Virus record (IMG/VR): IMGVR_UViG_3300033146_000857
Coordinates: 32,472 to 96,471 of that record
DNA: 64,000 bases
Strand: one strand, 5' to 3'
DNA from: a virus
Shown: positions 15,761-48,395 of the stretch, one piece after another
Position numbering within the stretch: the stretch's first letter is position 1
Layout: the number at the start of each line of letters is the position of its first letter
Program-made: the position numbers and the translations under genes
Notes under the pieces: generated by a model
Database searches by the model: none
Seen by the model: the letters and a program-made list of their open reading frames with translations, nothing else
Told to the model about the DNA's origin: nothing

Positions 15761-16307
15761 TAGATGCTCCTATTTGTTGGTTAACTAAGACTGTTGGTTG
15801 AAAATATTCCTTGAACTTAGCACTAAGTTCAAAAAAGTTGTTAAACTTATGGTCTAATTTTAAAGTTCCATCCAGATAATGAACTCTGTGGGGTATTCTT
15901 AAACCGCTTGAAAGTATACTACTAGTAGTAATATCGAAAGTATTATTTTCATAAACTAGGTTATTTCCAAGTAAACTATGAGATAGCCTTCTATTTATGT
16001 CAAAGGTGTTTTCACCATAGAACTTTGCCTCATGAGGGTACTTATAAGATAGTCTATCACCAGTTTGGTCATAGACTAATTTCATACTAGGATGAATTTG
16101 AGTAACAAGATCAAAAGACTCTTCCTCAACCAGTAGTTCTTCTAGGTAGTTCTTAAACTCATGATCGATCAGTCCAAAGTTTATCTCCCACTCTACATAG
16201 GGTACAGTAGTGTAATTGTCTACTTTTACTCCGTCTACTAATAAAGGATTTTTACCCATATTTATCGTATATCTTAGATCTGAGTATAAAAATGTGTCTA
16301 TCACCAT
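15735..16307 (-). CDS. Putative distal tail protein
   Basis: First gene after the tape measure (TAATG overlap), 190 aa; positional inference. Confidence 0.5.
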   Translation of the reverse strand: MVIDTFLYSDLRYTINMGKNPLLVDGVKVDNYTTVPYVEWEINFGLIDHEFKNYLEELLVEEESFDLVTQIHPSMKLVYDQTGDRLSYKYPHEAKFYGENTFDINRRLSHSLLGNNLVYENNTFDITTSSILSSGLRIPHRVHYLDGTLKLDHKFNNFFELSAKFKEYFQPTVLVNQQIGASSASNFRDC

Positions 16308-19300: not shown

Positions 19301-22300
19301 TTTAGCTATGTCCATTTTTCCAAGTTTAGTAGCTAGTTCTTCCATTGGCTTAAGCATTGTTACTCCACCGGCTGTCTTCACGGCCTCTGGATCTTCATTA
19401 GATAATACTTGCTTGTGTAGTTTGTCTGGGTCTGCTTGACTTAGTAATTTTCTGTACTGTTTATCTCCACCTAGTCTGTCATCTAGAACACTCGCAAAGG
19501 TATCTCCAATGCTCTTACTAAAACTTTGATCATTTGTAAAAGTATCCGCAGCAAGCTTATTAGCAAATTCTGACAAGTCTCCTCCAAGAGACCTGTTTAG
19601 GCTTGTAAAAGTAGACCTTATCTGACTGTCCATTTGTTTCAAAGGAACTTGCATAACTTTACCAAGTTTATCAGCTAAGTTTTCTAGCTCTCCTTTGTCC
19701 GAGAGTAGTTTTGTATATCCCCCTTTGTCAGCTAAGACTGTATCGGTTCTTTCAGATATCTCTTTACGATTTGCATAGAACACAGACTCTTTACCATTTG
19801 ACGCTATATCTTTCTGTACCTGACCTAGAATCTCTAGGTCATTGGTTGCTAATACAGCTACATTTGCTAGATGCTTATAAGATTTTTGCATGTTTGTGAT
19901 AACACTTTTTAATTCTTTATCACTTAGCTTATCTTTATCTTTTGTCTTATTATTAAAGCTTATAGCTTTATCAGATATTGCTTGGTCAAAATTTTGTTTA
20001 TTCTCTGTGGCTGCAATTGGGTTAAGCCTAACAATCTTGGCTATTGCCTTTGGTAAAGCACCAGTTAAAAGGATACTTTCTACTGATGCTTTATTAGTTA
20101 CTTTGTCTACCTCTTCTTGTTTAGCTACTGAGTATAATTTTAAACCACTTAAAAAATTATCCTTAACACTAGTTGTATTGGCTTTTGCACTTAGCTCTTT
20201 GAACTCTTGTATATTTTTTAGTAGTTGTTTTTGATTATTCCCAGCTAAGTCTAGTCCTTTTATAAAAGAGAAATTTTCATCTAAGTAGTTATTCAGGTCT
20301 GCTATCTCAGAACTGTACTGTTTCTCCATTTCTAGGGCTTTTTTACGGGATATTAGGTTCTTTTGAGCATTACCTGCCTCTATTTCAGAATTCTCGGCTA
20401 AAACACTCTTTAGCTCTTCTCCTGATAAGTCTGTAGTATTCTTTGTCTTTTTTAAGACTAGGGCTTTATCTTTAGATATTCCTGCATAAGTTTTACCTAA
20501 GTTACTTTGAAGTTCCGAATAAGCCTCTGCAGTAGTTGCCATGTGCTCGAATACTTGTTGAGAATTAAACCCAGCATCTTTTTCTGCACTTAGAGCTACG
20601 CTTCTATCTATACTGTCGTTTACTCCAAGTCCTTCTGATATCATTCCAGCACTTAGGCTACCAAGGACTGCTGCTACGGGTATACCAAGTCCAGTTGCTC
20701 CTGCCATAGTTGCACCAGCACCAGCTAAAACTCCACCAATAATACTTGGTGCTGCTTTAAGCATTGAGGCCCAGAAAACAGAACTTTCAACGTCCTCGTT
20801 TTCTGTTTCTTCATAGGCTTTTTTACCTAAGCTCCATGACTGAGCCGCTGTAGTTAATACAGCCAATGCTGGTAGTTTTGGTATTTTACTTGTCCACTTG
20901 CCTACGAAACCTGTGAAAGTCTTTATAGAAGGAGTTAGTTTTCCAACAGCCTCACCTAATGATTTAGTCAGCCCTGGAGCCATTTTAGCCATCTTATCTC
21001 CAGCAGTTATACCAGCCAAGCCTACACCAGTGCTTAAAGACCCCTTAGATAAGTAATTTGCCCCATAGATTCCGGCTGCAGTTAAGCCTAGCATTAAGCC
21101 ACTGGTCTCACCTTCTGGAGGTCTAAAAGATTCTAAGTAGTCTTCTTTTGACTTGGCATACATTGGCTTCTTTTTTACATCTCCTTCTAAGGTTAGTTGT
21201 TTAAATAGATCTCCTGAGCCATCTAGAGAACTTTCTAGTTGTGAATAAAAGCCTATTGACCAGCTATTTATCATGTTCTTAAATCTGTTCTTTGTTGAGC
21301 TAAGTTGAATTTCATTTGCATCTTCTGCAGCTGATGTGCCTATTATGCTAGACCTAAAAGCATCTGCTTTGTCTATCTGGTTTGATATGGCTGCATAGGC
21401 AGTTCTTTCTCTAACTTCCATACCTCTTGTGGCGTGCTGAAAAGTGTACCCAGAGTCTTTCATAAACTTAAAGACTCCAATTACTCCCTCATCATTAAAA
21501 ACCTTATTAAAGTCTTTAAGAGAGATATTAGCTGCTTTCAATGATTTAGCAAATTTTGCTGAAGGAGCTATAATGTCAGAAAATAACATTCTTTGTCCAG
21601 TACCTAGAGTAGAACCTCTCTTTATACCTGCGTCTTTCATAAGAGACGTAAGTGTTAGTACATCTTCTACAGGTATATTACCTTGAGCTGCGATGTTACC
21701 TGAATATTGTAAGGCAAGTCCTAGTGAATTTATATCAAGTTTAGACTTGTTAACTGCTGCTGTAAATTGATTAGCCACTACTTCTGACTCAGAGAAAGAC
21801 TTATCCCAAATGGTTAAAGCTGATGTAATAGTCTGAGTAGAATCTTCTAGAGATGAACCTGTTGCTGTTGCCAGTTTAACTACACCACCAAGTGACCCAC
21901 TAATACTGTTAGCTGTATAGCCTGCTTGTCCGAGAATAGTCGCTGCATCTGAGATCTCTGAGGCCGAAAACTTAGTAGTCACTGCTACTTTTTTTACAGA
22001 GTCTGTTAGTAATCCCATTTCTGTACTAGATGACCCAGTTATGGCTTGTAGGTTCTTTAGCCTGTCTTGAAACTCTACAGCACTACCGAGGGTTCCGGTT
22101 ATTAAGGCTGTGCCTGCTCCAAGTGCTGCGTATGATCCCATGAAAACTGCATTGTTCATCATCTGCTCTTTAAAGTTATCAACCCTGTTAGCTGCTTGAG
22201 CTTGTAAGTTTTTCTTACCAGAGTAAACATCTCTTGTAGCATTTAGTTTATCTTTACTTTGTTGAGAGTTATTTAATTCTTGGTCTATAGATTGTATATG

Positions 22301-25300
22301 ACCTAGGGCACCCAGCACTTGAGTAGTCTCCCCAGCCCCTTTTGTTTGATAAGTCTTAGCTTTACCTATGTCAGCAGATAGAGATGCTATTTGTTTTTTG
22401 TCTAGGCTTAATTTAGTTCCATATTTTTTAGTAAACTCTTTTTCATTAAGACCTGTAAGCTTTCTAACAGGCTCTAAATTTTCATTAAGCGCATTTATCT
22501 CTTTTGAAAGATCTTTTAGAGGTTTAAACACTTTAGATAATTCTTGAGTAGCTATAGACGATCCAAGTTGGTTTGATACTGCATTTTTCTCTGTCCCGCT
22601 AAGTTTGTTATATTTATCTACAGTAGTCTGCTTGACAGTCTCCCCAGCTATTCCTGAATTAAACACTTCTTCTATGACTGCTTTAGCCGGATTATTTTCT
22701 TCAAAAGCACTAACTATTAAATCTTTCTGAAGCTTAAATAATTCTTTCTGCTGCTTTGTCCCTGCAGTCATAAACATAGCACTCTGGTTTATATTTGACA
22801 CACTTTGGCGCCTATCTGAGTGTGTTGATATATTTTTTGGGTCTATAAGTCTTTTACCCCTTAAGTGTCCTTTAATGTCCCCTTCGCCCACGATTTCTGA
22901 ATAACTGCTAATTTGTTCTCTTCCAGCCTGTTCTAATGTTTCGTTTATATTCTGCTTAGCATCTGCTTTACTTTTATTCTCTGTAGTTTTACCTTTGTCT
23001 CCATTTTTCTTCTTTTGTGAGGCTATTAAGTCTTCTTTTTTCTCTGATTCAGACAGATAGTTATCCATAAGTTTTGTAACATCATTAAGCATGTCGTTAG
23101 GATCTAGGTCTAGGGGTCTAAAGGTGTATTTTGACTTGTCTTTCTTAACTTGTTCTGTCCAGTCTTTCCAACCGGTAACCAAGCCTCCAGTTTCATATTT
23201 GCTAAACTTACCTTCCGCTGCGGCCGATTGAAATCTGTCAAAAGAAGCTTTATCAGTTATGCCTAGACTTTTTGTTGTCTTCTGGTTTAGGACCGACTCA
23301 CCTTTCATTAGAAGTGCTGGTACTTCATCTTTAGTTGACTTACCAGGAATAAACCCTCCCTTAGCGAATTTTAATACCCCTCTAGACCTAAATGGAATTT
23401 TACCTTTAAGACTCTTATATTTAGCTTGTGGAAGAACTCTATGCCAGTTGTTATATATTAAATTATCTTCATCGTCTAGTAGGGTTCTTAGAAACTGTTG
23501 TTTTCTTTTAAAAGCTGTCTGTTTACTAACATCTTTAAGTTCTTCTTTGACATTACTAAGTTTTATCGCTTCCAATCTAGTATTTTTACTGGCCTTAGTT
23601 TCAGTAACTAAACTGTTAAATTTTGCATAGGCTCTATCAAGTGTTTCTTTTGTTGCTTCTGGTTGATAGTTAGCCTTAAAGTAGTCATTGAAACTTTCTC
23701 GTTTCTTTAGTCTTTTTTCTTTTTCCAGGTTAATTTTATCAAGTTTATTTCTGTCTTCTCTTGTTTTTCTCTCTTTAAAGAGTTCATCCGTATTTGTCAC
23801 TACCGTTGGATCTAGCTTTGTATTACTTGAAGCTTGAGTCTTATGTTTAGCTAAAGTCTCATCACTGAGAGTTCCTGCTTTTTTATTTACGCCCTCTCTA
23901 CCGGGTCTTAGCGCACTAGTCTCTTCAGAATTTATAAGCTCTTCCATAGAAACCATCTTACCTCTTACGGCTCTTTTCTTATACTTATCCTCTATGTTTA
24001 TCTGGCCTATTCGTTCATTTAACTCCTCAGAATAACTCTCTCCTAGTACATGATTAGCTTTTGACTTAGTATGATACTCTCCTAAGCCTGTCTTAGCTAA
24101 TCTTTCATTTAAGCCATGGTTAAAAGCACTAGATATTTGCCTAATCTCATTTGTGCTGTACTCAAGATTACTATCTAAGTAAGGAGTCATACCTTTAAAA
24201 GTTTCCTTAGTATTCTGTCTTAGAGCTTTTCTATACATATTAGCTATAGTTTTCTTAGGATCTTTCCATACTCTTTTTAGCGTCTTAGCTTCTTTACCAT
24301 CAGTCAGTCTCTGTGTGTAACTGTTTACTTGGTCTATTACTCTTAAAGCCGCCGCTTGTTGTATAGGATCTTTGTGTAGGTCTTTTGCCATGCTTGCAAT
24401 AGCCTTTGCCATTATAGGTATCTGTACTCTATCAACCCCCATACTAGGGCCTATGGCCTGTAGCTTTTGCATCACTCTGCTATATTTTGTAACAAATCTG
24501 CCCATTTGGTCTCTGTCCGACATACCCTCAAGTCCCAGACTCTCAGTTGCTGCTTTTAGTTGTTCTTTCTTTCCTCTAGCTGAATTGGCTTGTTGCTCAT
24601 ATTCTATTTTTCTAAGATATGAACCTTTATATTTTTTAGTTTTATAAGTATCCTTGTCTATGAGCCCTGGGTTAGTTGGAACTATGTAGTCTTCTGGATG
24701 TCTATTCTCAAATAGACTCTTTCCAAGTTGTAAAGAGTCTATGTCATCAAAAGGTACGTTAGCAATTCCACCATGAGCTCTTATAAGACTCTCTACTTTA
24801 TTAGCTTGTATATATTCCTCTTTAGTTAGACTTTTCAGCTCTGTATACTTTCCTGATGCTTCTTTTGATAGTTCTGTTTGAGGGCCTCTTAACCTTTTTA
24901 GTTGTTCTGGATGCTGAGTTTTTATTTGCTCGTTTTCAAGAGTATAAAAATCTGCCATTTCTGAGGCATATCCAATTTTATTTCTACTTAAAGCTTGAAC
25001 TAAAGCATTACGTTTTTGCCATGCCCAGTCGTCCTTATAATTTTCTCCATTCCAATGATTAAACCTTACTCTTCCAGAACTACCCTTTAAGCCCCCAAGA
25101 TTTGATGTACCTTGACCTTTTGCGTAGTCTTCAGCTATCTTAGCTTGTGCTATAAATTTACCTGAGGTTCCTTGATTACTTGTAGATACTGTATTCCAAT
25201 CTTTGTTATAATCGTAATTTGCCTGTAGGTCATAGAGCTGACTAAATAGGCTTTTATAAAAAGTGGTTCCAAGTTTATCTTGCCCAGGTGATGAGGTCAT

Positions 25301-27748
25301 TCCTAACGCTTTTCCTAGATTAACTAATTTTAGTATTTCTGAAGTATTTGCCTCTTTACTTCTAACTTTACTTATCAGCCTCTCTAGGGCTGTTTTTGAC
25401 TGTAACTTTCCATTCTTGTCTCTAGTAGTATCTTTCTTTAGTAGCTTTTCTAGCTCTCCCTTGCGTATACCTTTAGTTTCAGCATCTCCAGTTAGCACAC
25501 TGTCTAAATAACTATCTTCTGGACCACTATTAGTAGTTAGTTGATAACCAAGGCTATTTGTGTCACTATCTTTCATGTGAGTTATTTCTTTTTCTATCTC
25601 AAAAGAGTCTAACCCATAGCCTTCAAGTTTTTTCCTTTGCTTATCATACTTAGCATCATCGGCCATATTTTTTAAAGACTCTTTAGATCCTAGTAGTCCA
25701 TATTCTGAACTACTACTAATCTCAGTAGCTTTATTTAGTTCATCTTGAAATGTAACTACTCCTGAAGGTGAAGAAAAGGAATTCTCCATAGTTTTAGCTA
25801 TTTGAGGATTAGCTGTTGTAAAGCCGTCTTCTATGGACCCTCCTATAGAGGTTAATAATCTACTGTATTTTCTTTTAAATAAAGTTGGATAGGCGCTATC
25901 AGACACATGCTTCAGCCTTCCAGTAAACATTAGATCTTTTTGTAATGTTTCAAAAGTATCTTGGTCTAGCATCCCGCCTATAGTTTTGAAAGTTTTGTCT
26001 AACTTCATGTCTTTAAACTTGGTTTTGTTATTTTGTCCATAACCCATTATGTTATTCAGAAGTTTCTGCTCAGGACTAGTAGTTACCCTTCTTCGACTAT
26101 CTTCGTACTCAGCTCTCTTAGCTCTTACTACTTTTGATAGTATTGACTGCATGAAATCTTTTCTAGTATTTCCTTGTAGATTGGTCATTCCTTCTTGTAA
26201 GAAAGGTTCAAAACCTTTAGGTATCCCATTCTTTAGTATAAAAGATGCTGCTTTGGCTGGATTATCCATTGTGTATAGGTTTAGTAGTTTTTTAACACTA
26301 GAACTATCTTGACCAAAAGTTTTTACCGCTTGTCTAAGTGCTCCCTTATGGTTTATGCCTAGACTATTGCTATGTTTTACATCCTTAGCTCTTTGACTCA
26401 TGTTATGGATTGTTCTAAAAGTATCTTGTGTAGGTCTATTATTATCTCTTGTGTTAAATATCTCTTCTTTCATACTGTCTGTTAAACTTCTACCAGTAAG
26501 TTTTTCTAGTTTATTTATCTCAGCTAGCATAAAAGAATTTTCTCTTATTCTAGACCCTTTTCGCCTGTCTAGTTTTATGTCAGCCATCTCTCTAGTGGGT
26601 AATGCTTTGTATACTGACACCTCATCGTCTATTATGTAGTCTTCAAAAGAAGTCTTAAAATCTTTTGAGCTAAGTCTGCTTATATGTTTAAAATCTCCAA
26701 CTGTAGTAGCTTTTAACTTTGCAGTTGCCTCATCTGGTGACATACCACTAGTTAGTTCAGAGGCTATTTTACGAAGTTCATTCTGGTATCTAAGTTTCAT
26801 ACCAGCTTGATCAGTCTCAAATTTGCTTAGGCTGACTCCCAGGTTAGCTGTTCTATATTCTGTAGGTGAACCAATATTTTTTAATAGTGGTAAATTTCTA
26901 AGAACTGGAGACTCTCCTTCAAAAGAATTTCCTAAGTTATTTAAGGTTTTTTCTAAATTTTTATCTAAAGTTCCTCCCAGGGACACAGTTGAAAGACTAG
27001 ACTCCTTTTCTCTATATCCCACCCTCTGTCTATCAGCTTGGGCTATTCTTGTTATGCTCTTAGAACCTTTTGGACTAACAAAGGATATATTGTTCATGTC
27101 TTTGTGCATGTGAAGTAATGACATAGCTAACTTACTTGGTTTAGTGGTATCAAAGCCTGTTGTTGTTGGAATTATAAACTGCTTGGTATCTCTGTTATAA
27201 ACAAAGCTATCCGCAGTTTTTGCTGCCCCTCCACTAATTGGACTACTAAGTTGTCTTACTTCTAAGCTCCCGTCAAAAGACCCTGGAGTACTAAGACCCA
27301 TTTTCTCTATAGTACCTCTTATTCTATTTTTTAGCTTATGTGTAACATTTCTAGCTTGTGAGTCTGTTATGTTATAGCCTGCTATGAAGCTTTTCCAACT
27401 TTTATCAAAACTTTGAGGCTTTTTAACTTGATGGATGATAAAATCATTAGCCATTTCATCAAAGTTATTTCCTATGTCTAGATTACTAAGTAATTTCTTA
27501 GTTCTCTGAGCTGTACTGTTTACTCTCTTTGGATAGGCCGCGGCTGAAAACTCTTCTAATTTTTCTCTGCCCTCTGAAGGGCTAAATAAATGTTTAAGAT
27601 CTTTATTGGTGGTTATATGTTTGTACAGACGTGCTTTTGTTTTATGTATCTTCTTTGATACTGCGTCTAAAGCTTCAGAGCTATCTGGAGCATCTGGGCT
27701 GTTAAGTTCAAGGTTTAGTAAATCATTTATGTCATCTATATTAGGCAT
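16307..27748 (-). CDS. Tail tape measure protein (TP901-family core) with very long N-terminal extension
   Basis: 3813 aa. Core FQDRLKNLQAITGSS...TTKFSASEISDAATILGQAG at ~21300-22100; hydrophobic Gly/Ala segments; 11-residue periodic helical repeats; C-terminal GGVLPGYGGGDRRPTLLEDGEAVV; follows the chaperone pair. Confidence 0.92.
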   Translation of the reverse strand: MPNIDDINDLLNLELNSPDAPDSSEALDAVSKKIHKTKARLYKHITTNKDLKHLFSPSEGREKLEEFSAAAYPKRVNSTAQRTKKLLSNLDIGNNFDEMANDFIIHQVKKPQSFDKSWKSFIAGYNITDSQARNVTHKLKNRIRGTIEKMGLSTPGSFDGSLEVRQLSSPISGGAAKTADSFVYNRDTKQFIIPTTTGFDTTKPSKLAMSLLHMHKDMNNISFVSPKGSKSITRIAQADRQRVGYREKESSLSTVSLGGTLDKNLEKTLNNLGNSFEGESPVLRNLPLLKNIGSPTEYRTANLGVSLSKFETDQAGMKLRYQNELRKIASELTSGMSPDEATAKLKATTVGDFKHISRLSSKDFKTSFEDYIIDDEVSVYKALPTREMADIKLDRRKGSRIRENSFMLAEINKLEKLTGRSLTDSMKEEIFNTRDNNRPTQDTFRTIHNMSQRAKDVKHSNSLGINHKGALRQAVKTFGQDSSSVKKLLNLYTMDNPAKAASFILKNGIPKGFEPFLQEGMTNLQGNTRKDFMQSILSKVVRAKRAEYEDSRRRVTTSPEQKLLNNIMGYGQNNKTKFKDMKLDKTFKTIGGMLDQDTFETLQKDLMFTGRLKHVSDSAYPTLFKRKYSRLLTSIGGSIEDGFTTANPQIAKTMENSFSSPSGVVTFQDELNKATEISSSSEYGLLGSKESLKNMADDAKYDKQRKKLEGYGLDSFEIEKEITHMKDSDTNSLGYQLTTNSGPEDSYLDSVLTGDAETKGIRKGELEKLLKKDTTRDKNGKLQSKTALERLISKVRSKEANTSEILKLVNLGKALGMTSSPGQDKLGTTFYKSLFSQLYDLQANYDYNKDWNTVSTSNQGTSGKFIAQAKIAEDYAKGQGTSNLGGLKGSSGRVRFNHWNGENYKDDWAWQKRNALVQALSRNKIGYASEMADFYTLENEQIKTQHPEQLKRLRGPQTELSKEASGKYTELKSLTKEEYIQANKVESLIRAHGGIANVPFDDIDSLQLGKSLFENRHPEDYIVPTNPGLIDKDTYKTKKYKGSYLRKIEYEQQANSARGKKEQLKAATESLGLEGMSDRDQMGRFVTKYSRVMQKLQAIGPSMGVDRVQIPIMAKAIASMAKDLHKDPIQQAAALRVIDQVNSYTQRLTDGKEAKTLKRVWKDPKKTIANMYRKALRQNTKETFKGMTPYLDSNLEYSTNEIRQISSAFNHGLNERLAKTGLGEYHTKSKANHVLGESYSEELNERIGQINIEDKYKKRAVRGKMVSMEELINSEETSALRPGREGVNKKAGTLSDETLAKHKTQASSNTKLDPTVVTNTDELFKERKTREDRNKLDKINLEKEKRLKKRESFNDYFKANYQPEATKETLDRAYAKFNSLVTETKASKNTRLEAIKLSNVKEELKDVSKQTAFKRKQQFLRTLLDDEDNLIYNNWHRVLPQAKYKSLKGKIPFRSRGVLKFAKGGFIPGKSTKDEVPALLMKGESVLNQKTTKSLGITDKASFDRFQSAAAEGKFSKYETGGLVTGWKDWTEQVKKDKSKYTFRPLDLDPNDMLNDVTKLMDNYLSESEKKEDLIASQKKKNGDKGKTTENKSKADAKQNINETLEQAGREQISSYSEIVGEGDIKGHLRGKRLIDPKNISTHSDRRQSVSNINQSAMFMTAGTKQQKELFKLQKDLIVSAFEENNPAKAVIEEVFNSGIAGETVKQTTVDKYNKLSGTEKNAVSNQLGSSIATQELSKVFKPLKDLSKEINALNENLEPVRKLTGLNEKEFTKKYGTKLSLDKKQIASLSADIGKAKTYQTKGAGETTQVLGALGHIQSIDQELNNSQQSKDKLNATRDVYSGKKNLQAQAANRVDNFKEQMMNNAVFMGSYAALGAGTALITGTLGSAVEFQDRLKNLQAITGSSSTEMGLLTDSVKKVAVTTKFSASEISDAATILGQAGYTANSISGSLGGVVKLATATGSSLEDSTQTITSALTIWDKSFSESEVVANQFTAAVNKSKLDINSLGLALQYSGNIAAQGNIPVEDVLTLTSLMKDAGIKRGSTLGTGQRMLFSDIIAPSAKFAKSLKAANISLKDFNKVFNDEGVIGVFKFMKDSGYTFQHATRGMEVRERTAYAAISNQIDKADAFRSSIIGTSAAEDANEIQLSSTKNRFKNMINSWSIGFYSQLESSLDGSGDLFKQLTLEGDVKKKPMYAKSKEDYLESFRPPEGETSGLMLGLTAAGIYGANYLSKGSLSTGVGLAGITAGDKMAKMAPGLTKSLGEAVGKLTPSIKTFTGFVGKWTSKIPKLPALAVLTTAAQSWSLGKKAYEETENEDVESSVFWASMLKAAPSIIGGVLAGAGATMAGATGLGIPVAAVLGSLSAGMISEGLGVNDSIDRSVALSAEKDAGFNSQQVFEHMATTAEAYSELQSNLGKTYAGISKDKALVLKKTKNTTDLSGEELKSVLAENSEIEAGNAQKNLISRKKALEMEKQYSSEIADLNNYLDENFSFIKGLDLAGNNQKQLLKNIQEFKELSAKANTTSVKDNFLSGLKLYSVAKQEEVDKVTNKASVESILLTGALPKAIAKIVRLNPIAATENKQNFDQAISDKAISFNNKTKDKDKLSDKELKSVITNMQKSYKHLANVAVLATNDLEILGQVQKDIASNGKESVFYANRKEISERTDTVLADKGGYTKLLSDKGELENLADKLGKVMQVPLKQMDSQIRSTFTSLNRSLGGDLSEFANKLAADTFTNDQSFSKSIGDTFASVLDDRLGGDKQYRKLLSQADPDKLHKQVLSNEDPEAVKTAGGVTMLKPMEELATKLGKMDIAKLTAISDFVDNLSLERDITKAKDLKNYRFAEGLNRTLRNANIAKDSFKTVSSMSTSDIVNMTDRSGLANNMSEDYRNRQTLTKQIAIKNLDIRTANIKEAKIRQVAFQQQELNISARNKREDAVRQYRFNLDKLNLNTDRSRRDVTINRVSSERNLRRDVGFSGQKIGRSKEYSVEDLGISKERKVEANNRNYNRNIQALDRSVQNQQASALLNYARSLKQVGINFRRSVADLKTSTNQARHDARKNYARQVNDLNRNYGRTLAAINRAIADTNTLFSRNLQKPVVLTVNADTLLGLADKMSNISLAMDANKAKLSENTSAIKQWININKTKEDLVKEAYKEAYKVAGGDVNSEIFNKTYLDYMDKNSDKLIDVIVDQGVTKAQAGFSFDATRALTDPEYMKEMVAAPETAPTAASAATGNSVSIEQLVDLLYGAANGAYRTTTTVGDVTGAKGEMGAALFDLQTAMLKYDLSIRDAGIKLAYDLQDAHRKYSRDLSDIATQFNRNMTKLSLDFQRALEDLSIKLAESMQDIQINKDIKTEELGIGKSFGLEDIARGFEQGIEDINRNTARQLEELGISFSENMTKIADSVRDSFRQIAIHAADAKADLARALSFNLEGMEINSDRLSAALGRQLTEMLNTLAIDVEQSKEALEQSQIDAVALATFDAIAMANKYEESFRDSMKVATFDAVILQQKIEDSIQTTLQKVDVNTENINDKMQSVFQNLFNNEMLQKVANDLGATTAEQLIAGLEKGTIKLKDIKENLVKRLSKTSDETSKAVVDLVDKTGEKTTQAIKNKNFYKPMAAELTKQADWLTRSLKTSTLSINRGFSSVGRDVTKGANEAARTMTRSVSQAMASLNRDLARARAASARAARTIAASSNIAGHSSSVGMSTGGVLPGYGGGDRRPTLLEDGEAVVRKETVRALGADYFNGLNKSTMSIPKVNINTISSSNNQVSQDSGNNFNITIPVAPDASLASIERNLPMIANGVKKVFEEYL

Positions 27749-37375: not shown

Positions 37376-37430
37376 TTTTGGCTCCTTTGTTAGCATACTT
37401 ATAAGATAGAAATGTTTTGCTGAATGTCCC

Positions 37431-37790
37431 TTAGCTTAATAAGAGGTTGACTGAGGGGGGCGTTAGATTGACTGAGGGGGCGTTAGGTTGGTTGATGGAA
37501 TCTGGTTTAGCTTAATAAGAGGTTGACTGAGGGGCGTTATTTTGGTTGATGGAATCTGGTTTAGGTCGGGGTGGCTGATGGAATCTGGTTTAGGTCGGGG
37601 TGGCTGATGGAATCTGGTTTAGGCTGGGGTGGCTGATGGAATTTGAAATTTAGGGAAAACATTTGCCAAAATTTCCTGGGTAAAAATTTCGGATAAAAGA
37701 TTTTAGGGAAAACATTTGTCAAAATTTCCTGGGTATATCTGGGTAAAAAAGATTTTAGGGAAAACATTTGTCAAAATTTCCTGGGTATAT
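37431..37790 (+). repeat. Compound G/T-rich tandem repeat array at the strand switch
   Basis: TTGACTGAGGGG(G)CGTTA x3; 29-bp GATGGAATCTGGTTTAGGTCGGGGTGGCT x3, with 5 GATGGAAT cores; TTAGGGAAAACATTTGTCAAAATTTCCTGGGTA x3. Confidence 0.9.
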
Positions 37791-37874
37791 CCGGGGGCTA
37801 TATAGAGGTAGTGTACATGCGTGAGATATAACTCATGGCACCCGCCTCAAAAGTCTATATCGAAAGGATCAGTT

Positions 37875-38603: not shown

Positions 38604-38650
38604 AGTTTACTGGTAAGAGCTTTAAAACCAGAGATTATAATCTGAGGAGA
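38604..38650 (+). promoter_or_regulatory. Conserved early-gene leader, copy 1
   Basis: AGTTTACTGGTAAGAGCTTTAAAACCAGAGATTATAATCTGAGGAGA; CTGGT/ACCAG stem. Confidence 0.8.
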
Positions 38651-38655
38651 TTAAA

Positions 38656-39132
38656 ATGAGTTTAGACAGAGAGTTAAGACAGTTTGGGCAACCTTACTTC
38701 ACCCAAACCACTCCAGGGGGTTTAAAGTGGTATTGGACAGACACCCAAAGGATTAGGGCTAGCCTATCCCCGACTAGAAATAGAGAAATAGTAGTTAAGT
38801 TAAATAAGTTACCAGATAACTATAGCTTGACCAAGTTATTGGTTAATCTGGAAGACCAGTGGCTTAAACAGTTCCCTGAGGTAGACTGCTATCAGGGTAT
38901 AGCTCAAATAACTAACAACCGTGACTTCAGTGAGACAGTTAACTACTATCTATTTGAAGATGGTAGTATAACAAAGTTTCTATACCATAAGTATCATAGA
39001 AATCATGATATAAAGACAATAGAATTGACTACCTATCCAGTCAGATGGGACGGTGTAGCATTCAACATGAGATGTAAAAAGATCTCTAAGAGGTTAGCTG
39101 CAAAGCTGACGGGCTTAGACGCTTTACTTTAG
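38656..39132 (+). CDS. Hypothetical early protein
   Basis: 158 aa behind the conserved leader. Confidence 0.75.
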   Translation: MSLDRELRQFGQPYFTQTTPGGLKWYWTDTQRIRASLSPTRNREIVVKLNKLPDNYSLTKLLVNLEDQWLKQFPEVDCYQGIAQITNNRDFSETVNYYLFEDGSITKFLYHKYHRNHDIKTIELTTYPVRWDGVAFNMRCKKISKRLAAKLTGLDALL

Positions 39133-39177
39133 TTTACTGGTAGTATCTTTAAAACCAGAGATTATAATCTGAGGAGA
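39131..39177 (+). promoter_or_regulatory. Conserved early-gene leader, copy 2
   Basis: AGTTTACTGGTAGTATCTTTAAAACCAGAGATTATAATCTGAGGAGA. Confidence 0.8.
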
Positions 39178-39181
39178 TTAA

Positions 39182-39563: not shown

Positions 39564-39610
39564 AGTTTACTGGTAAGAGCTTTAAACCAGACTTATATAA
39601 TCAGAGGAGA
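39564..39610 (+). promoter_or_regulatory. Conserved early-gene leader, copy 3
   Basis: AGTTTACTGGTAAGAGCTTTAAACCAGACTTATATAATCAGAGGAGA. Confidence 0.8.
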
Positions 39611-39612
39611 TT

Positions 39613-39870: not shown

Positions 39871-39895
39871 ATAGGATCTTCTAAGAAGATCCTAT
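39871..39895 (+). other. Intergenic hairpin (possible RNase III/processing stem)
   Basis: ATAGGATCTTC-TAA-GAAGATCCTAT perfect 11-bp stem. Confidence 0.6.
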
Positions 39896-39936
39896 TATGT
39901 CTTTGACATAAATAAATTTTTATCTGAGGAGATATC

Positions 39937-40314
39937 ATGGAATTTAGGAACAAAGGTTTCACCTACCTACATGAAGGTGAGAATAGCTGCGAAGTTTGGT
40001 TTACTGCGGACAAGTGTTGGAAAGTTGCCTGTCAAATGGCCGATGCTAACTGTGTGTTTAAAGACTCTAGAGCCTTTAGATGGATAATGGACACTGCCCC
40101 ACAGACACAGTATAAGAAGATTAATACTGTGTTCTGGTTGAATGAGGGAACTCTTGTTATCTTTATGAGACAGTTGGAGAACGGTGAGTTTACCTTATCT
40201 AGAGTATCAGATAGTTTCTTACTGAAACGTTACCTAGCTAATAACTTTGACAGTCTAGAAAAGACCATCCAATGGGTAGTTAATAAAGCAATAGAGGAGA
40301 ACAACCATGCTTAA
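39937..40314 (+). CDS. Hypothetical early protein
   Basis: 125 aa; ATCTGAGGAG RBS. Confidence 0.75.
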   Translation: MEFRNKGFTYLHEGENSCEVWFTADKCWKVACQMADANCVFKDSRAFRWIMDTAPQTQYKKINTVFWLNEGTLVIFMRQLENGEFTLSRVSDSFLLKRYLANNFDSLEKTIQWVVNKAIEENNHA

Positions 40315-41082: not shown

Positions 41083-41128
41083 AGTTTACTGGTAAGAGCT
41101 TTAAACCAGACTAAACAATCTGAGGAGA
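41083..41128 (+). promoter_or_regulatory. Conserved early-gene leader, copy 4
   Basis: AGTTTACTGGTAAGAGCTTTAAACCAGACTAAACAATCTGAGGAGA. Confidence 0.8.
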
Positions 41129-41133
41129 TTAAG

Positions 41134-42364: not shown

Positions 42365-42411
42365 AGTTTACTGGTAAAAGCTTTAAAACCAGACCTATTT
42401 ATCTGAGGAGA
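42365..42411 (+). promoter_or_regulatory. Conserved early-gene leader, copy 5
   Basis: AGTTTACTGGTAAAAGCTTTAAAACCAGACCTATTTATCTGAGGAGA. Confidence 0.8.
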
Positions 42412-42415
42412 TAGA

Positions 42416-42898
42416 ATGAAACTAATCCCAATAAGCTCTTTTGAGCCTGCTGAAGTATCGAATAGAGAATATGCTGTTAGAACCTTACAAAGTGGTATTG
42501 AGTTGCATGAACTTAAAAACTATCCTTCTAGTGTTGTGATAGAGTATAGAGATTTTACTATAACAGCTACTAGACTTAAGAATGATGACAAATGGTTATT
42601 CATAGGCGAGAATGGTAAACACACGTTTACTGATTTTAATCTTGGTGAACACTTAGAACTGTCTATAGTTGACTTAAAAATAGACGAACTTATATTGTTA
42701 GACACTCAGGAACCTTTTTTAGAAGAGTTACTTGAAGTAGCTATTTCAAAGTTAGACCTTTTGGACAGAATAGAACTACAGTCTGCTATGTCAACAATTG
42801 GTTACTGTAACTGTGCCAAGCATTTTAAGCTATACCTAGCAGAGGAAACAATGTCAGATCTAAAAGAAGCACTTGAAGCCTTAAAGGAGGTAATGTAA
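42416..42898 (+). CDS. Hypothetical early protein
   Basis: 160 aa behind the conserved leader. Confidence 0.75.
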   Translation: MKLIPISSFEPAEVSNREYAVRTLQSGIELHELKNYPSSVVIEYRDFTITATRLKNDDKWLFIGENGKHTFTDFNLGEHLELSIVDLKIDELILLDTQEPFLEELLEVAISKLDLLDRIELQSAMSTIGYCNCAKHFKLYLAEETMSDLKEALEALKEVM

Positions 42899-43830: not shown

Positions 43831-44210
43831 GCTGCTAAGATCAATTACCTGTAGCACTAACATCAGAGTCTATGACTAGAATCACAGCCGATCTTCCCAA
43901 TCAAAAAACCCTGGCTGTGTCTATATATCTAATATCTTTAGTTCCTGACCCACAGGCCAATCTTTTATATTGATTGTACAAAACCCTTACACCATAGATT
44001 CATGGGCCACTCTGCTCAACTTTCCTCTAAAGGTAACCCATTAATATTCCACTCCACCCTGTGCCCATATGCCCATCCCTACATAGGCATGCTAAGCGTC
44101 TTTGTGCACACTTGATGTATAATACATATACGAACAAAGATGATAGATGTTAGATGATATTGACCTTGCCTTGGCCATTATGACCATAGGATAAGCATCA
44201 AGTCACTTTT

Positions 44211-44229
44211 CTTGAACTTTTGTTATAAT
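44211..44229 (+). promoter_or_regulatory. Extended -10 sigma70-type promoter
   Basis: CTTGAACTTTTGTTATAAT (TGnTATAAT) upstream of 44298; a similar TTGAACTT...TGATACTAT lies at 38568-38590. Confidence 0.6.
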
Positions 44230-44297
44230 TATGTTATGAATCAAAAGAGAGTTGGTCAAGACGACCCAATAACTGTCAATCTTAGGAGGACAAACCA

Positions 44298-44711
44298 ATG
44301 AAACTAACAACCGTAGCTGATATAACAGCAAAATTCCAAACTGTAGTAGCAGACCCAGAGTCAGCAAATGAAGAAGCACAAGCTATCCGTACTGAAGAGC
44401 TTATGAAGTTGAGTAAGTCTGACCTTACAGCTATGATTATCTCGGCTGAGTCTAGAAATTCAGGCTCTGTAAAGGTCGGAGACCTTGCAAAAATGATACT
44501 TCAAGACGAAGAGTTTATCACTGCAAGCCATGAGACAGTTGCTCAAGCTGTAAGAGAACTAATCCCTGGAAGCCAAACGTCTTACAAGAGCATTGCCTCT
44601 TATGTGAGTAAGAAGAGAGAAGAATGGGACCTACCTGATAGAATTCAAGTACGAACAGCTCGTCCAAAAAAACCAGCTCCAGAGGTTGAGACTGAAACAA
44701 CTGAAGACTAA
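44298..44711 (+). CDS. Putative DNA-binding (HTH-like) early protein, paralog B
   Basis: 137 aa, paralog of 39182..39553; strong AGGAGG RBS and its own promoter. Confidence 0.7.
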   Translation: MKLTTVADITAKFQTVVADPESANEEAQAIRTEELMKLSKSDLTAMIISAESRNSGSVKVGDLAKMILQDEEFITASHETVAQAVRELIPGSQTSYKSIASYVSKKREEWDLPDRIQVRTARPKKPAPEVETETTED

Positions 44712-44720
44712 AAAAAGACT

Positions 44721-44745
44721 TAGGCCATCGGACGTGGATGGCCTA
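44721..44745 (+). terminator. Probable intrinsic terminator/hairpin
   Basis: TAGGCCATC-GGACGTG-GATGGCCTA followed by TTGTTTT. Confidence 0.55.
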
Positions 44746-44804
44746 TTGTTTTATTTAAGCTCTACCAAAGGGCTTATATAAAGTAATAACCGAGGAGTTA
44801 AAAA

Positions 44805-45137
44805 ATGTTAAAAAGTATATTCTTAAATGATAAGGTAGTACTAAATGCCTCTAAACTCAGCCATAACCCTGTAAAAGGACACTTGACGCTTACTTATCCA
44901 GATAATGAGTGTTTGAACCTTTTAGATATTATAGACCCAAAAGTGTGGTCTATTGACTATTTATCAAAGAAAAAAGTTCGTTTATACCCAATAATTGACA
45001 ATAAACTGACAATTAAGGGCAAAACCTTTGAAATTTTCTATAACACTGACAGCTGTGTTGTAATCCATAAAGACGAATTTGAGCTATTTGATAGCTTCAC
45101 TATTATACCAGGAGACCTATCATGGATGACAAACTAA
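44805..45137 (+). CDS. Hypothetical protein
   Basis: 110 aa; GAGGAG RBS. Confidence 0.7.
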   Translation: MLKSIFLNDKVVLNASKLSHNPVKGHLTLTYPDNECLNLLDIIDPKVWSIDYLSKKKVRLYPIIDNKLTIKGKTFEIFYNTDSCVVIHKDEFELFDSFTIIPGDLSWMTN

Positions 45138-45748
45138 GAGACTCCATACTAGACATAACCCTGGAAACCTTAAGTAATAAAGCTTTGCTCAGCCTAGCCA
45201 TGGAAGTGTTCAATGATAGAGGCTTAGCCCTTTTTGATATTTTTAATGACCTGTCAAACGAGGACTTTCAAAAGTTATTGACTGAAGAGTTTGAAAAGAG
45301 AGAAATAGACTACTTCCCAAGAGATCTGGACGGCCTCCTAAAAGTTCTGAACAAAGAACTCATGGTCATAGACCTGTTTAAGTTTAAAAACGATCAAGCC
45401 TTATTAGAGACTTTTAGAATCCTTATGAATGAGAGAAATATCGATTATCTCAAAGGTTTAGACGGCGAGACTCTTATGAAGCCCATTTCTGACGAGATTT
45501 TACAACTGGAATTGGCTGAGCGAAATCTATTGACTATGCCCAAAGATCAGGACCAGTATGAGCAATTTATACTGGATGAGCTAGTAAACCGGCCTGTAGA
45601 AGCTAAGAAGCTTCTGAGCATATATGCTAAGCCATACAGACCTAGTGAACATAAGGATAGATGTCTTAAAGTCATTGCTATGTCAACGACATATGCCAAT
45701 GACCCTAGGCCTGAGTTATTAGAAAATATCTTAGGCCAACTGGCCTAA
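45122..45748 (+). CDS. Acidic helical hypothetical protein with internal helical repeats
   Basis: 208 aa; repeated L...L..R.I/L units; AGGAG RBS. Confidence 0.7.
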   Translation: MDDKLRDSILDITLETLSNKALLSLAMEVFNDRGLALFDIFNDLSNEDFQKLLTEEFEKREIDYFPRDLDGLLKVLNKELMVIDLFKFKNDQALLETFRILMNERNIDYLKGLDGETLMKPISDEILQLELAERNLLTMPKDQDQYEQFILDELVNRPVEAKKLLSIYAKPYRPSEHKDRCLKVIAMSTTYANDPRPELLENILGQLA

Positions 45749-45753
45749 CAACA

Positions 45754-45820
45754 TAGACCCTCTCCAGGGTAGGCAGGATAGTACCTCCTCAGATTGCCTG
45801 CCTATCTTGTAGAGGGTCTA
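45754..45820 (+). ncRNA. Candidate antisense sRNA hairpin whose loop is complementary to the early-gene RBS
   Basis: 24-bp stem (1 mismatch; 2 G-U pairs that form only on the + strand) closing loop AUAGUACCUCCUCAGAUUG, the reverse complement of CAATCTGAGGAG(G). Confidence 0.55.
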
Positions 45821-45833
45821 CAAAGGAAATCAA

Positions 45834-46115
45834 ATGTTTATTGTACCTAATTCAGTCATGACTATGTATGCTGATAGAATTCTTATGGAAAAAGATAAGC
45901 TTACTATAGAATCAAACCATCAACTTGAGATGTTAGAAATGTTAGACCCCACTGTATATATGGTTAAGTTAACTACGTCTAAAGATACATCTATAAAGTT
46001 GTTCCCAAAAGAGGGTTACTTCATTAACTTCTGTGAAGAGGCTCAGTCATGGGTCATCTTAGACCTAGGCACAAATGAGCTATCTCTTCAGAAAAGTCGT
46101 TTCTTATGGCTTTAG
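45834..46115 (+). CDS. Hypothetical protein
   Basis: 93 aa; AAAGGA RBS. Confidence 0.65.
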   Translation: MFIVPNSVMTMYADRILMEKDKLTIESNHQLEMLEMLDPTVYMVKLTTSKDTSIKLFPKEGYFINFCEEAQSWVILDLGTNELSLQKSRFLWL

Positions 46116-46336
46116 TAGTAATAGCTTATTTTGTGCTATCACGGTTTAGTCCAAAGCTGTTTGCATTTGCATTTGCCATTGGCATAGGACTGCATGCTTA
46201 TGGTCTAACATACGATGTCGGGGCTGTGGCCATTTGCCTAGGGCTGTGGCTATTTGGTTCTCAACAGTTGCTAGGGTTAATCACTTTGGCTTATTTAGCC
46301 CTAATACCGGTGGCTCTATTTCAGGTATTTGGATAG
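46106..46336 (+). CDS. Small polytopic membrane protein
   Basis: 76 aa, almost entirely hydrophobic. Confidence 0.65.
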   Translation: MALVVIAYFVLSRFSPKLFAFAFAIGIGLHAYGLTYDVGAVAICLGLWLFGSQQLLGLITLAYLALIPVALFQVFG

Positions 46337-46356
46337 AAATTCTGAAGGATTATTAA

Positions 46357-46569
46357 ATGATTATAGAAACAAATCTTAAACTTAAGGATGACTTTTACTA
46401 TATGAAGAGTAACAAAATAGAAAAAGACTATGTTAAAACAGTCCGTGCCAGTGTCTCGGAGTATAAAACTATCGTTTTCTATGATTGCTCCCAAGGGGAA
46501 ATCGAAGATAAATACTGTTTTAAAACTGTTGAGGCTTTAGTTACTTCACTTAAAAAAGGTCTAAAATGA
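46357..46569 (+). CDS. Hypothetical protein
   Basis: 70 aa; AAGGA RBS. Confidence 0.6.
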   Translation: MIIETNLKLKDDFYYMKSNKIEKDYVKTVRASVSEYKTIVFYDCSQGEIEDKYCFKTVEALVTSLKKGLK

Positions 46570-46919
46570 GATATTTATCCGATTATATGGAGAAAGAAAA
46601 CACAAAAACCTTCGACAAATATGAGGCTTTCTATGCCTTCAGCCAAAAACGATTTGAAGAAAAGGCAAATAAAGATTTGAACTACGTCTCCCTACCGGGT
46701 GGCTTATGCTGCCCGAAAGACCTTGTCAAGGCCCTGATCGACGAACTTTACCAGAACCGTGCCAATGCCATTGCCCTGGACTTAAAGGAAAATGGCATTG
46801 ACAATGTCATCCAGCGTGAGCTTGATAACTACGAGTGCTCTTGTACTAGAAATACCGAGCCTGCTTGGGATGCTCTGGAAGATTACCCGGGTATTACAAG
46901 AGAAATGGTAAAATTATGA
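46566..46919 (+). CDS. Conserved phage hypothetical protein
   Basis: 117 aa; AFYAFS..RFEE...GGL...RELDNYEC pattern, as recalled from many phage proteins. Confidence 0.65.
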   Translation: MRYLSDYMEKENTKTFDKYEAFYAFSQKRFEEKANKDLNYVSLPGGLCCPKDLVKALIDELYQNRANAIALDLKENGIDNVIQRELDNYECSCTRNTEPAWDALEDYPGITREMVKL

Positions 46920-47092
46920 GAACTGAATTTATACCTTATCTTAGGCCTAATATCAATTTGGAAGATGAAATAGCTTCTTTGGATAAGATGGAAGGTCTTG
47001 CCCGAGGCTTTAAATCCTTAAGATTAGCTATTCTGTGTAGAGTTTGGTGGCCACGCCAAAGGTCCGCTTACAAAAAAATTATAGATATATAG
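46916..47092 (+). CDS. Hypothetical protein
   Basis: Track ORF 46865..47092; likely start at the ATGA overlap 46916 (MRTEFIPYL...). Confidence 0.5.
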   Translation: MRTEFIPYLRPNINLEDEIASLDKMEGLARGFKSLRLAILCRVWWPRQRSAYKKIIDI

Positions 47093-47138
47093 CCCCCTAG
47101 AGATGTAAATACTTCTTTAGGGATGTAAATGCCTTTGT

Positions 47139-47176
47139 CATCTAATTCTGTAGCTTCTTTGATTCAGAATTAGATG
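47139..47176. other. 12-bp hairpin at the end of the early block
   Basis: CATCTAATTCTG...CAGAATTAGATG. Confidence 0.55.
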
Positions 47177-47199
47177 GACCTTGGCCAGGTCATTAGCTC

Positions 47200-47700
47200 T
47201 TTTTATACTAGAAGTGCTAAAAAAAGTTTGTTAAGGTTTTCGAACTATCTTAGTCAATACTTTTTAGTCTAATTTTATTGATTTGAATTCTTTATACAAT
47301 ATAACTATCTATTTCTAATAATTTTCTTACTTTTTTGACACTTTCAATTTTATCACTATTTAGGGGTCGCTGGACATAGTAGTCGGTCTGCTAAGCGAAT
47401 AGTAAACGAAAAATATTTGTTATTTTATAAGTATAGTAATAAAAAATTTTCCATAGTAATGAATTTGTCAAAAACATGCTAAAGGTAAGATAGAATACTT
47501 AGTTCGTTTACTATTGGTCAGTTTTTCTCTGTGACTCGACATTCTTCCCAAAAACGAGCCCTTAAAAATTGATAAAAAAAGTTTAGTGTAGCCAGTTTTT
47601 CTATCCCCTTTTAGCACTTTTTTCGAGTTTTCATATCATTTTTTAACTACGAGACCTAGCATACTAAGATAGTTTAACTAGAATAGCCTGACATTTGCTC
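47200..47700. other. AT-rich non-coding region with nested inverted repeats (candidate origin or injection/packaging signal)
   Basis: AACTATCTTAGT 47243 / ACTAAGATAGTT 47663 and AATAGTAAACGAA 47398 / TTCGTTTACTATT 47503 share a centre at ~47457. Confidence 0.55.
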
Positions 47701-47773
47701 AGAGTAAAACATTTAATGAAAAATAAACCCTATAAACGGCCAAAATAACTACAATCTAAACCTGAATGGTCAG

Positions 47774-48110
47774 GCGTGACCAATAGCGTGACCAATAGCG
47801 TGACCAATATCATGACCAATATCATGACCAATATCATGACCAATATCATGACCAATATCATGACCAATAGCGTGACCAATATCATGACCAATAGCGTGAC
47901 CAATAGCGTGACCAATATCATGACCAATAGCGTGACCAATATCATGACCAATATCATAAGACAAATTCCATAAGACACCCAGACACCCAGACATAAAACA
48001 AATTCCATAAGACACCCAGACATAAGACACCCAGACATAAGACACCCAGACATAAGACACCCAGACATAAAACAAATTCCATAAGACAATAAACAATAAA
48101 CAATAAAAGC
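47774..48110 (+). repeat. A/C-rich tandem arrays: 12-bp x15 and 15-bp units
   Basis: C(G/A)TGACCAATA(G/T) x15 at 47774-47956, then CATAAGACACCCAGA and CAAATTCCAT units. Confidence 0.95.
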
Positions 48111-48267: not shown

Positions 48268-48395
48268 CTCTTATAAAAGCTACAGTCCTGGGGAGACATA
48301 TCAACCTCTTATAAAAGCTACAGTCCTGGGGAGACATATCAACCTCTTATAAAAGCTACAGTCCTGGGGAGACATATCAACCTCTTATAAAGCTA
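48268..48395 (+). repeat. 38-bp perfect tandem repeat x3 plus a partial copy
   Basis: CTCTTATAAAAGCTACAGTCCTGGGGAGACATATCAAC at 48268, 48306 and 48344; no spacers. Confidence 0.95.

Follow-up and report, generated by a model that had tools for sequence, protein, structure and literature searches.

A conserved intercistronic hairpin RNA in a phage subclade, with a loop complementary to early-gene ribosome-binding sites: a possible form of antisense control

Our analysis of the genome of an uncultured phage from IMG/VR points to a conserved hairpin whose loop is complementary to the ribosome-binding sites (RBSs) of a set of early genes. The window, as the whole analysed stretch of 64,000 nucleotides is called here, covers bases 32472-96471 of the 96,471-bp virus record IMGVR_UViG_3300033146_000857, a record with terminal repeats, and the hairpin lies at 45754-45820 of the window on the + strand, which is the strand of all neighbouring genes. 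Comparison with relatives supports the view that it is a + strand RNA structure kept by selection. As to its role, we consider it possible, with a confidence a little short of an even balance, that an antisense hairpin carried by the mRNA, and possibly processed from it, represses the translation of a subset of early genes by pairing with their RBSs; its transcription, processing and timing, its pairing in vivo and the direction of its effect are what we infer from the sequence. The element is outside Rfam and is not a member of the C4 family. Indeed, nothing reached the gathering threshold in the whole window, RF01695 included, and a search of 45600-45950 at E <= 10 returned only sub-threshold look-alikes of miRNA precursors. 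What is known of how lytic phages shut off their early genes concerns mainly proteins, such as RegA and RegB of T4 or the kinase and transcription inhibitors of T7, and a conserved RNA recognising a shared, structured early RBS would give phage temporal programmes a further, post-transcriptional layer made of RNA. In the literature searched, we found no RNA described as targeting a phage's own early RBS class.

The structural genes of this phage, among them those for the large terminase, the portal and the major head protein, lie on the minus strand up to about position 37400 of the window. A + strand block of small orphan genes begins at about 37800 and is headed by three tandem repeats of about 43 nt (TTAGGGAAAACATTTGTCAAAATTTCCTGGGTATATC) at 37650-37810, an arrangement of the kind expected for early genes. 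Around the hairpin, where the gene order is A (44805), B (45122-45748), hairpin, C (45834-46115), no PHROG or Pfam family fits the genes. Two sites of the intrinsic terminator type were located upstream of it:

39871-39895: terminator-like hairpin of the intrinsic type, upstream of the RBS mini-hairpin of the gene starting at 39937
44721-44745, + strand: canonical intrinsic terminator with a stem of 9 bp and a T-run behind it; it precedes the hairpin by 1 kb and is conserved in the related contig L040

The canonical terminator may limit read-through into the operon that bears the hairpin, which itself comprises the following parts:

45754-45777, + strand: 5' arm of 24 nt, whose pairing is kept in L040 through five double-sided changes
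45778-45796, + strand: nominal 19-nt loop ATAGTACCTCCTCAGATTG, with its core TAGTACCTCCTCAGATT identical at 17 of 17 positions in L040 and CCTCCTCAG kept in the related contig L041
45783-45792, + strand: open apical part of the loop, ACCUCCUCAG, about 10 nt unpaired
45797-45820, + strand: 3' arm of 24 nt

The preliminary description had given a 24-bp stem with two G-U pairs under a 19-nt loop. The two G·U pairs and their placement on the + strand hold, while the 24 stacked positions are actually 23 standard pairs (both G·U included) and one C·U mismatch; the loop is nominally of 19 nt, but four weak pairs (UAGU/AUUG) probably lengthen the stem and leave about 10 nt open. In a context of ±150 nt, ACCUCCUCAG is unpaired with a probability of 0.7-0.99 and the stem is formed with a probability of about 1. 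The + strand RNA has a minimum free energy of -41.1 kcal/mol (z = -6.8, with none of 200 shuffles as good), and the minus-strand fold is weaker, at -35.3 kcal/mol, or about 6 kcal/mol worse. When both strands of the whole 96,471-bp genome were scanned for 80-nt folds, 45754-45820 was the most stable of all and the only hairpin of this sort. In each of the three phages that carry it (those of the window, L040 and L041), it occupies an intergenic gap, beginning 0-7 nt past a stop codon and ending 6-16 nt short of the next ATG, and the five wobble pairs of the three hairpins are all G·U on the + strand and A·C on the other. This polarity, together with the compensatory changes presented below, argues for a + strand RNA structure rather than a DNA cruciform. 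The helices also attain the roughly two turns (at least 20 bp) of double-stranded RNA typical of a T7-type RNase III site (23 pairs plus one mismatch in the window, 24 in L040 and 20 in L041). Neither a sigma-70-like promoter nor a terminator or U-run belonging to the hairpin was found, so that a discrete small RNA would need processing. The hairpin is absent from the terminator-like sites found and is not an intrinsic terminator, in which a G+C-rich stem runs straight into a U-run; the sequences on its 3' side are CAAAGGAAAUCAA (window), ACAUAAAGGAC (L040) and AGAUUUAAUG (L041). A reading of the loop as a minus-strand ORF or RBS was also rejected, since no start or ORF is conserved.

On the target side, ATCTGAGGAG occurs exactly five times on the + strand (38640, 39167, 39922, 41118 and 42401), each time 5-7 nt before an ATG and within leaders of the form (CA)ATCTGAGGAG, and its reverse complement occurs once, in the hairpin loop. 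The perfect match that had been claimed between the loop and the RBSs of the genes starting at 38656, 39182, 39937, 41134 and 42416 is thus borne out, and copies with one mismatch were found, as also claimed, before the starts 38013, 39613 and 44298. A looser count of the 10-mer with at most one mismatch gave 11 sites versus 4.9 expected from shuffles, a modest excess. The candidate target leaders are given below with their net energy of interaction with the loop, that is, the duplex energy plus the opening energies of both partners:

38604-38655, + strand: leader cassette 1, candidate target; TAGTTTACTGGT..ACCAGA, then the mini-hairpin uAAUCU-GAGG-AGAUUa; ATCTGAGGAG at 38640-38649, ATG at 38656; net -11.4 kcal/mol
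39131-39181, + strand: leader cassette 2, candidate target; match at 39167-39176, ATG at 39182; net -10.3 kcal/mol
39564-39612, + strand: leader cassette 3, weak candidate; one-mismatch ATCAGAGGAG at 39600-39609, ATG at 39613; net -6.7 kcal/mol
39919-39936, + strand: RBS mini-hairpin UAUCU-GAGG-AGAUA; ATCTGAGGAG at 39922-39931, ATG at 39937; net -11.0 kcal/mol
41083-41133, + strand: leader cassette 4, best candidate; CAATCTGAGGAG at 41116-41127, ATG at 41134; 12 contiguous pairs; net -13.8 kcal/mol
42365-42415, + strand: leader cassette 5, candidate target; match at 42401-42410, ATG at 42416; net -9.2 kcal/mol
44277-44289, + strand: RBS CAATCTTAGGAGG of the conserved 137-aa gene 44298-44711; 12 of 13 positions match the loop; identical in L040; net -11.6 kcal/mol

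Four of the five exact sites, as well as the one-mismatch site before 39613, sit at the end of a cassette of about 50 nt (TAGTTTACTGGT, a loop, ACCAGA, about 8 nt and the RBS) that is present five times in the window (38604, 39131, 39564, 41083 and 42365). The cassette loop is 12 nt long and contains CTTTAAA, and its 5-bp stem is found in compensatory variants, with CUGGU/ACCAG, UUGGU/ACCAA (in the contig L043), and CUGUU/AACAG and GGGUU/AACCC (in the related genome G001). This cassette could be a promoter for a sigma factor of the phage itself, or else a signal for RNA processing or 5' stabilisation. Next to the start codon, the Shine-Dalgarno sequence (SD) of the leaders is placed in the GAGG loop of a mini-hairpin of 5-7 bp (38637-38654, 39164-39181, 39919-39936, 41115-41132 and 42398-42415 in the window), the arms of which covary across the window, L042, L043 and G001/L014 as ATCT/AGAT, TATCT/AGATA, TACT/AGTA, TTCT/AGAA, TCCT/AGGA and ACTT/AGGT. 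Taken singly, these mini-hairpins are weak: at -4 to -5 kcal/mol, they fold no better than shuffled sequences. A palindromic DNA operator of the form AATCT-N4-AGATT was rejected, since the arms vary among the leaders of one genome yet stay complementary, which makes a sequence-specific DNA operator unlikely. These arms also qualify the earlier claim that the match runs about 6 nt past the generic SD: the match is present, but the extension is the 5' arm of the covarying mini-hairpin that presents the SD, so that the structure of the leader itself accounts for part of its conservation. Presentation of GGA in a short loop also resembles the binding sites of CsrA/RsmA.

The loop discriminates among the start regions of the genome, although not sharply. 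Of the 141 start regions predicted, those of the five cassette genes alone offer at least 10 contiguous pairs to the loop, all others reaching 8 at most, and the seven best duplex energies all belong to genes of the early block (the median gene lies at -8 kcal/mol). Net energies are distributed as follows:

Four exact-match cassette leaders and the leader of 39937: -9.2 to -13.8 kcal/mol
Leader of 44298: -11.6 kcal/mol
One-mismatch cassette of 39613: -6.7 kcal/mol
Early genes with an ordinary SD: -6.6 to -8.9 kcal/mol
Genes that immediately follow the hairpin: -0.6 to -3.8 kcal/mol

Once opening costs are charged, the cassette leaders beat ordinary strong SDs by only about 2-5 kcal/mol; the preference of the loop is real but modest, because its open part is mostly a generic anti-SD. 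The RBS of the adjacent downstream gene (CAAAGGAAATCAA-ATG) does not match the loop, in agreement with what had been noted earlier, and its complementarity is limited to 4-5 nt. Moreover, the loop cannot reach this SD, because a linker of 3-5 nt cannot span a 24-bp helix, and a pseudoknot between the two was rejected as sterically impossible and of only 4-5 bp. The loop and the matched SDs are carried by the same strand at distances of 1.5-7 kb, with the terminator-like hairpins at 39871-39895 and 44721-44745 between them.

The closest IMG/VR relatives, as judged by their terminase, are G001 (72%), G002 (62%) and G003 (54%). From an alignment of homologues of the 137-aa protein (44298-44711), a scan of metagenomes gave 13 contigs, two of which, L040 and L041, carry the hairpin. 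The 137-aa protein of L040 is 91% identical to that of the window, and its hairpin (L040:3164-3231) belongs to a 61-nt island of 84% identity within about 1.8 kb of otherwise unalignable DNA (flanks of about 1 kb and 0.8 kb). All 24 stem positions pair in L040, with five double-sided changes and a single one-sided change (C-G to U·G), and the C·U mismatch of the window is replaced by an A-U pair. Pairing holds in 97.9% of cells, and a shift of the partners by 1-3 columns lowers it to 34-50%. Over its 17 positions, the loop core TAGTACCTCCTCAGATT shows no difference at all, versus 8 differences among 48 stem positions, which supports a stronger constraint on the loop than on the stem. L041 is more distant (137-aa protein 69% identical) and its hairpin is syntenic, following the 137-aa homologue and a weakly A-like ORF. 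This 20-bp hairpin (L041:1231-1286; -33.8 kcal/mol, z -7.1) has arms CCUUAUUGAUGAGGGCAUCU / AGGUGCCCUCAUCAAUAAGG that have nothing in common with the stem sequence of the window, and its 12-nt loop UCUAUCCUCCUC, followed by AG, retains CCUCCUCAG. That this 9-mer is kept at the tip of a syntenic hairpin despite the full replacement of the stem is very unlikely without selection on the loop. The core that is invariant in all three hairpins is CCUCCUC, and their orientation is the same in all three assemblies.

The genes next to the hairpin are not conserved in the same way. The order is A, B, hairpin, C in the window; A', hairpin, B' in L040; and A'', hairpin and an ORF for a 63-aa hydrophobic membrane protein in L041. 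Since the neighbours differ in the three phages, the hairpin appears as an independent module that is not tied to one of them, and a location-independent role fits the action in trans that the preliminary description had put forward. Gene B (45122-45748) precedes the hairpin in the window and its homologue follows it in L040 (44805-45748 compared with L040 2815-3700), and gene C (45834-46115) gave no BLASTP match to A', the only L040 ORF compared, and no blastn match in L040; on these alignments, the hairpin marks a junction of module shuffling. In L041, a terminator-like hairpin at 940-990, after the 140-aa gene (CCTGATGAGG...CCTCATCAAT), shares the arms TGATGAGG/CCTCATCA with the 1231-1286 hairpin located 250 nt downstream, and this local palindrome may have been the source from which the longer stem was rebuilt.

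If the loop recognises leaders, it should follow those of its own lineage, and this is what the relatives display with one deviation. L042, which comes from the same sample as L041, carries a paralogue of a cassette gene of the window with the leader AAUCCUGAGGAGGAUAAA-AUG, and this leader is matched over 13 nt by CCUGAGGAGGAUA, which is the L041 loop region in reverse complement. The corresponding duplex has an energy of -24.4 kcal/mol, or a net -14.8 kcal/mol after opening costs, whereas the same loop finds only 8 nt in any leader of the window, L040/L043 or G001. Likewise, the loop of the window matches 10-12 nt of its own cassette leaders and 8-10 nt of foreign ones. In L040 the loop is unchanged, and L043, from the same sample, retains (G/A)TCTGAGGAGAT leaders. 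The deviation is the cassette leader of L040 itself, TTGTCGGAGGAT, which pairs over only 5 nt and has drifted from complementarity. The expectation that the loop tracks the leaders of its own phage is thus upheld in two lineages, to which the three hairpins effectively amount as independent cases; L041 and L042 are linked by their shared sample and not by a contig. An accessible and conserved seed that changes together with its targets is a feature of base-pairing small RNAs. A stem that is replaced, a loop that is kept and a loop that follows its own leader together make up the sort of signature by which a functional RNA is told from a chance palindrome. CTGAGGAG leaders and the hairpin co-occur in this subclade, and the more distant relatives G002, L055, L057, L058 and L063 lack both a comparable hairpin and leaders of the CTGAGGAG kind. 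G001 (IMGVR_UViG_3300002242_002756), with leaders of the TACTGAGGAGTA type, ends before the place where the hairpin would be expected; the model predicts that it follows an A-like gene there and has a loop complementary to (A/U)ACUGAGGAGUA.

A mechanism can be proposed on this basis. The conserved + strand hairpin would be part of the early-region mRNA, in an intercistronic gap, where its stem of 20-24 bp would hold the anti-leader ACCUCCUCAG and its flanks in an open loop. Its targets would be the early RBSs whose SD CUGAGGAG is displayed in the loop of a 5-7 bp hairpin. The CCUC(C) of the hairpin might contact the GAGG loop of the leader, and the pairing could then spread into one arm of the leader hairpin, up to 10-13 bp covering the SD, which would block 30S binding and lower the expression of five to seven early genes jointly. 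The hairpin might act within the mRNA or after excision of its upper part, which is plausible because RNase III cuts near-perfect helices of 20-24 bp. Against such an antisense role, the GAGG loop of the leaders, with no more than 4 nt, offers little room for a kissing contact, and the leaders TTGTCGGAGGAT of L040 and 39613 of the window fit poorly. A more ambitious version, in which the processed intercistronic hairpin of an uncultured marine phage subclade serves as an orthogonal anti-RBS that silences a class of early genes by loop-loop contact with hairpin-presented CUGAGGAG leaders, is rather doubtful in our view. Were it true, it would be an RNA counterpart of T4 RegA/RegB, and the leader hairpin and the anti-leader loop would give a compact orthogonal pair for the control of translation.

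Other roles have to be weighed against this one. The hairpin could be a processing or stability element between cistrons, either an RNase III site of the T7 early type or a barrier to 3' exonucleases, that uncouples the flanking mRNA segments and makes no use of its loop complementarity. Its exact fill of the intergenic gap in all three phages and its apparent lack of a promoter and terminator of its own are well in line with such a function, and near-perfect helices of 20-24 bp are a known type of RNase III substrate. We nevertheless find it unlikely as the whole explanation, since it accounts neither for a loop more conserved than the stem (17/17 in L040), nor for the survival of CCUCCUCAG through total stem replacement in L041, nor for the 13-nt fit of the L041 loop to a leader of its own lineage; moreover, the hairpin is present as a single copy, as opposed to the series of T7. 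Processing and antisense pairing are compatible in any case, as cutting could release the loop RNA. The position of the hairpin end, always 6-16 nt before an ATG, also invites the idea of a cis-acting leader, a stable hairpin at the next SD that sets translation of the following gene or blocks coupling with the preceding one. The last four stem bases of L041 (AAGG) indeed belong to the SD AAGGAG of the next gene, and the window and L040 are alike in a short flank downstream, CA(xx)AAGGA(x)AT. Yet the downstream gene is different in all three phages, the SD is outside the stem in the window and L040, the loop is unable to reach the adjacent SD and complements it over only 4-5 nt, and loop conservation would be left unexplained, which makes this idea quite improbable.

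The composition of the loop offers a further possibility. The 3' end of 16S rRNA is ACCUCCUUA, and the loop motif ACCUCCU(C)A copies it, so that the hairpin might be a protein-binding RNA or decoy that titrates a host or phage factor. The invariant core CCUCCUC is the anti-SD itself and the flanks that confer leader specificity vary between lineages, as would be expected from such a mimic. We consider it very unlikely: a candidate factor is not known, CCUCCU is followed by a conserved CAG that is not 16S-like, and the lineage-specific extensions match the leaders of their own phage, which a 16S mimic would not need. At the DNA level, the palindrome might have no RNA function and be a site of recombination or a junction between modules, a signal for replication or packaging, or the remnant of an inverted leader cassette. 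It does sit where the gene order of the relatives differs, and a repeated leader could be copied in inverted orientation, in which case the complementarity could have arisen by recombination without function. However, a cruciform has no strand preference, and the chance that five of five non-Watson-Crick pairs are G·T on the + strand is about 1/32. Compensatory changes preserve the pairing, the L041 stem has no sequence in common with the others and hence no basis for homologous recombination with them, and the orientation is identical in the three assemblies. Like the cis-acting leader and the decoy, a DNA palindrome also leaves unexplained why the loop is conserved and fits the leaders of its lineage. 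A DNA palindrome alone is therefore the sort of explanation to which we attach very little weight.

Antisense repression of early RBSs, if it takes place, would have partial precedents. The c4 RNA of P1/P7 and the CI RNA of P4 are processed from the transcript that they control, by RNase P in P1 and P4, their loops are complementary to several sites of the operon including an RBS, and they maintain immunity in temperate phages. The present hairpin is likewise a phage-encoded folded RNA without a promoter of its own, whose loop is complementary to more than one site of the same phage covering an RBS (five exact and three with one mismatch). It differs from C4 (RF01695) by the absence of a covariance-model match and by its single long hairpin, which is not the c4 fold, and from the immunity role of c4/CI by its proposed targets, the RBSs of a group of early genes; the parts of the genome examined revealed no genes for lysogeny. 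Phage T7 has a series of RNase III hairpins between its early genes (R0.3-R1.3), with internal loops at the cut, and a sequence near R1.1 is reported to be able, if processing does not occur, to pair with an RBS upstream of it. Common to both phages are a long hairpin between cistrons of an early polycistronic region and a possible interplay between hairpin and RBS, but the present phage has a single, nearly perfect hairpin whose 10-nt loop is conserved. In T4, RegB is an endoribonuclease (GGAG) and RegA a translational repressor, and both act on early mRNAs. The joint switching-off of a class of early messages through an RBS feature would be similar in the mechanism proposed here, except that the effector would be an RNA instead of a protein. 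In the icaR mRNA of Staphylococcus aureus, an anti-SD UCCCCUG of the 3'-UTR pairs with the SD of the 5'-UTR, initiation is blocked and the duplex is an RNase III substrate (PMC3868564). The likeness lies in a C-rich anti-SD motif that is located in an untranslated part of an mRNA and is complementary to an SD region. The icaR motif acts on its own mRNA and on one gene, whereas several leaders are matched here, and the motif of the phage tops a hairpin of 20-24 bp and faces targets that are themselves small hairpins. More recently, a lambda small RNA was found to act on the host dnaN, and phage base-pairing small RNAs in lytic development are only now being charted (bioRxiv 10.1101/2024.10.31.621285). 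Set beside these systems, the hairpin is a plausible new form of phage antisense control, a statement we make with slightly less than even confidence.

Further copies were sought with little return. Megablast of 44000-48000 gave no match among GenBank phages, the protein encoded at 45122-45748 has no homologue in IMG/VR or in a set of 5.8 billion proteins, and a covariance model built on the window and L040 (R1) found no further copy in 219 kb of relatives. IMG/VR pattern scans with the upper stem, the cassette, the four-block stem, the 17-nt loop core and the L041 stem returned unrelated chance matches only; the 17-mer loop-core matches L053 and L054 were rejected because they lie inside long ORFs. 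Several minor observations can be added. G001 (L014) has, on its minus strand at about 2500-4600, a repeated intergenic hairpin of its own (GCUAGAGCCCUAUAAGUAGGGCUCUAUGGUGUUAG, 4-5 copies), with an analogue in L057 (6360-6800) and no counterpart in the window. L063 (JALWRR010000076.1, 71.7 kb), whose 137-aa protein is 44% identical, is binned in a Promethearchaeati (Asgard) MAG, most likely an artefact because of the strong bacterial-type SD usage of the group. On the minus strand of the window, the sole clear domain of a 3813-aa ORF (16307-27748) is the phage minor tail/tape-measure domain PF10145 (residues 1916-2084); an N4-like virion RNA polymerase with hairpin promoters was rejected for this tape-measure-like protein, whose length is exceptional for a tape measure. 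Finally, the repeats at 37650-37810 are promoter-like and resemble an early-promoter battery, with G/T-rich repeats preceding them at 37431-37640, and at the right border of the early block (48274-48390 and 47791-47870) lie a 38-nt repeat in three tandem copies (TCTTATAAAAGCTACAGTCCTGGGGAGACATATCAACC) and a series of repeated TGGTCATGATAT units.
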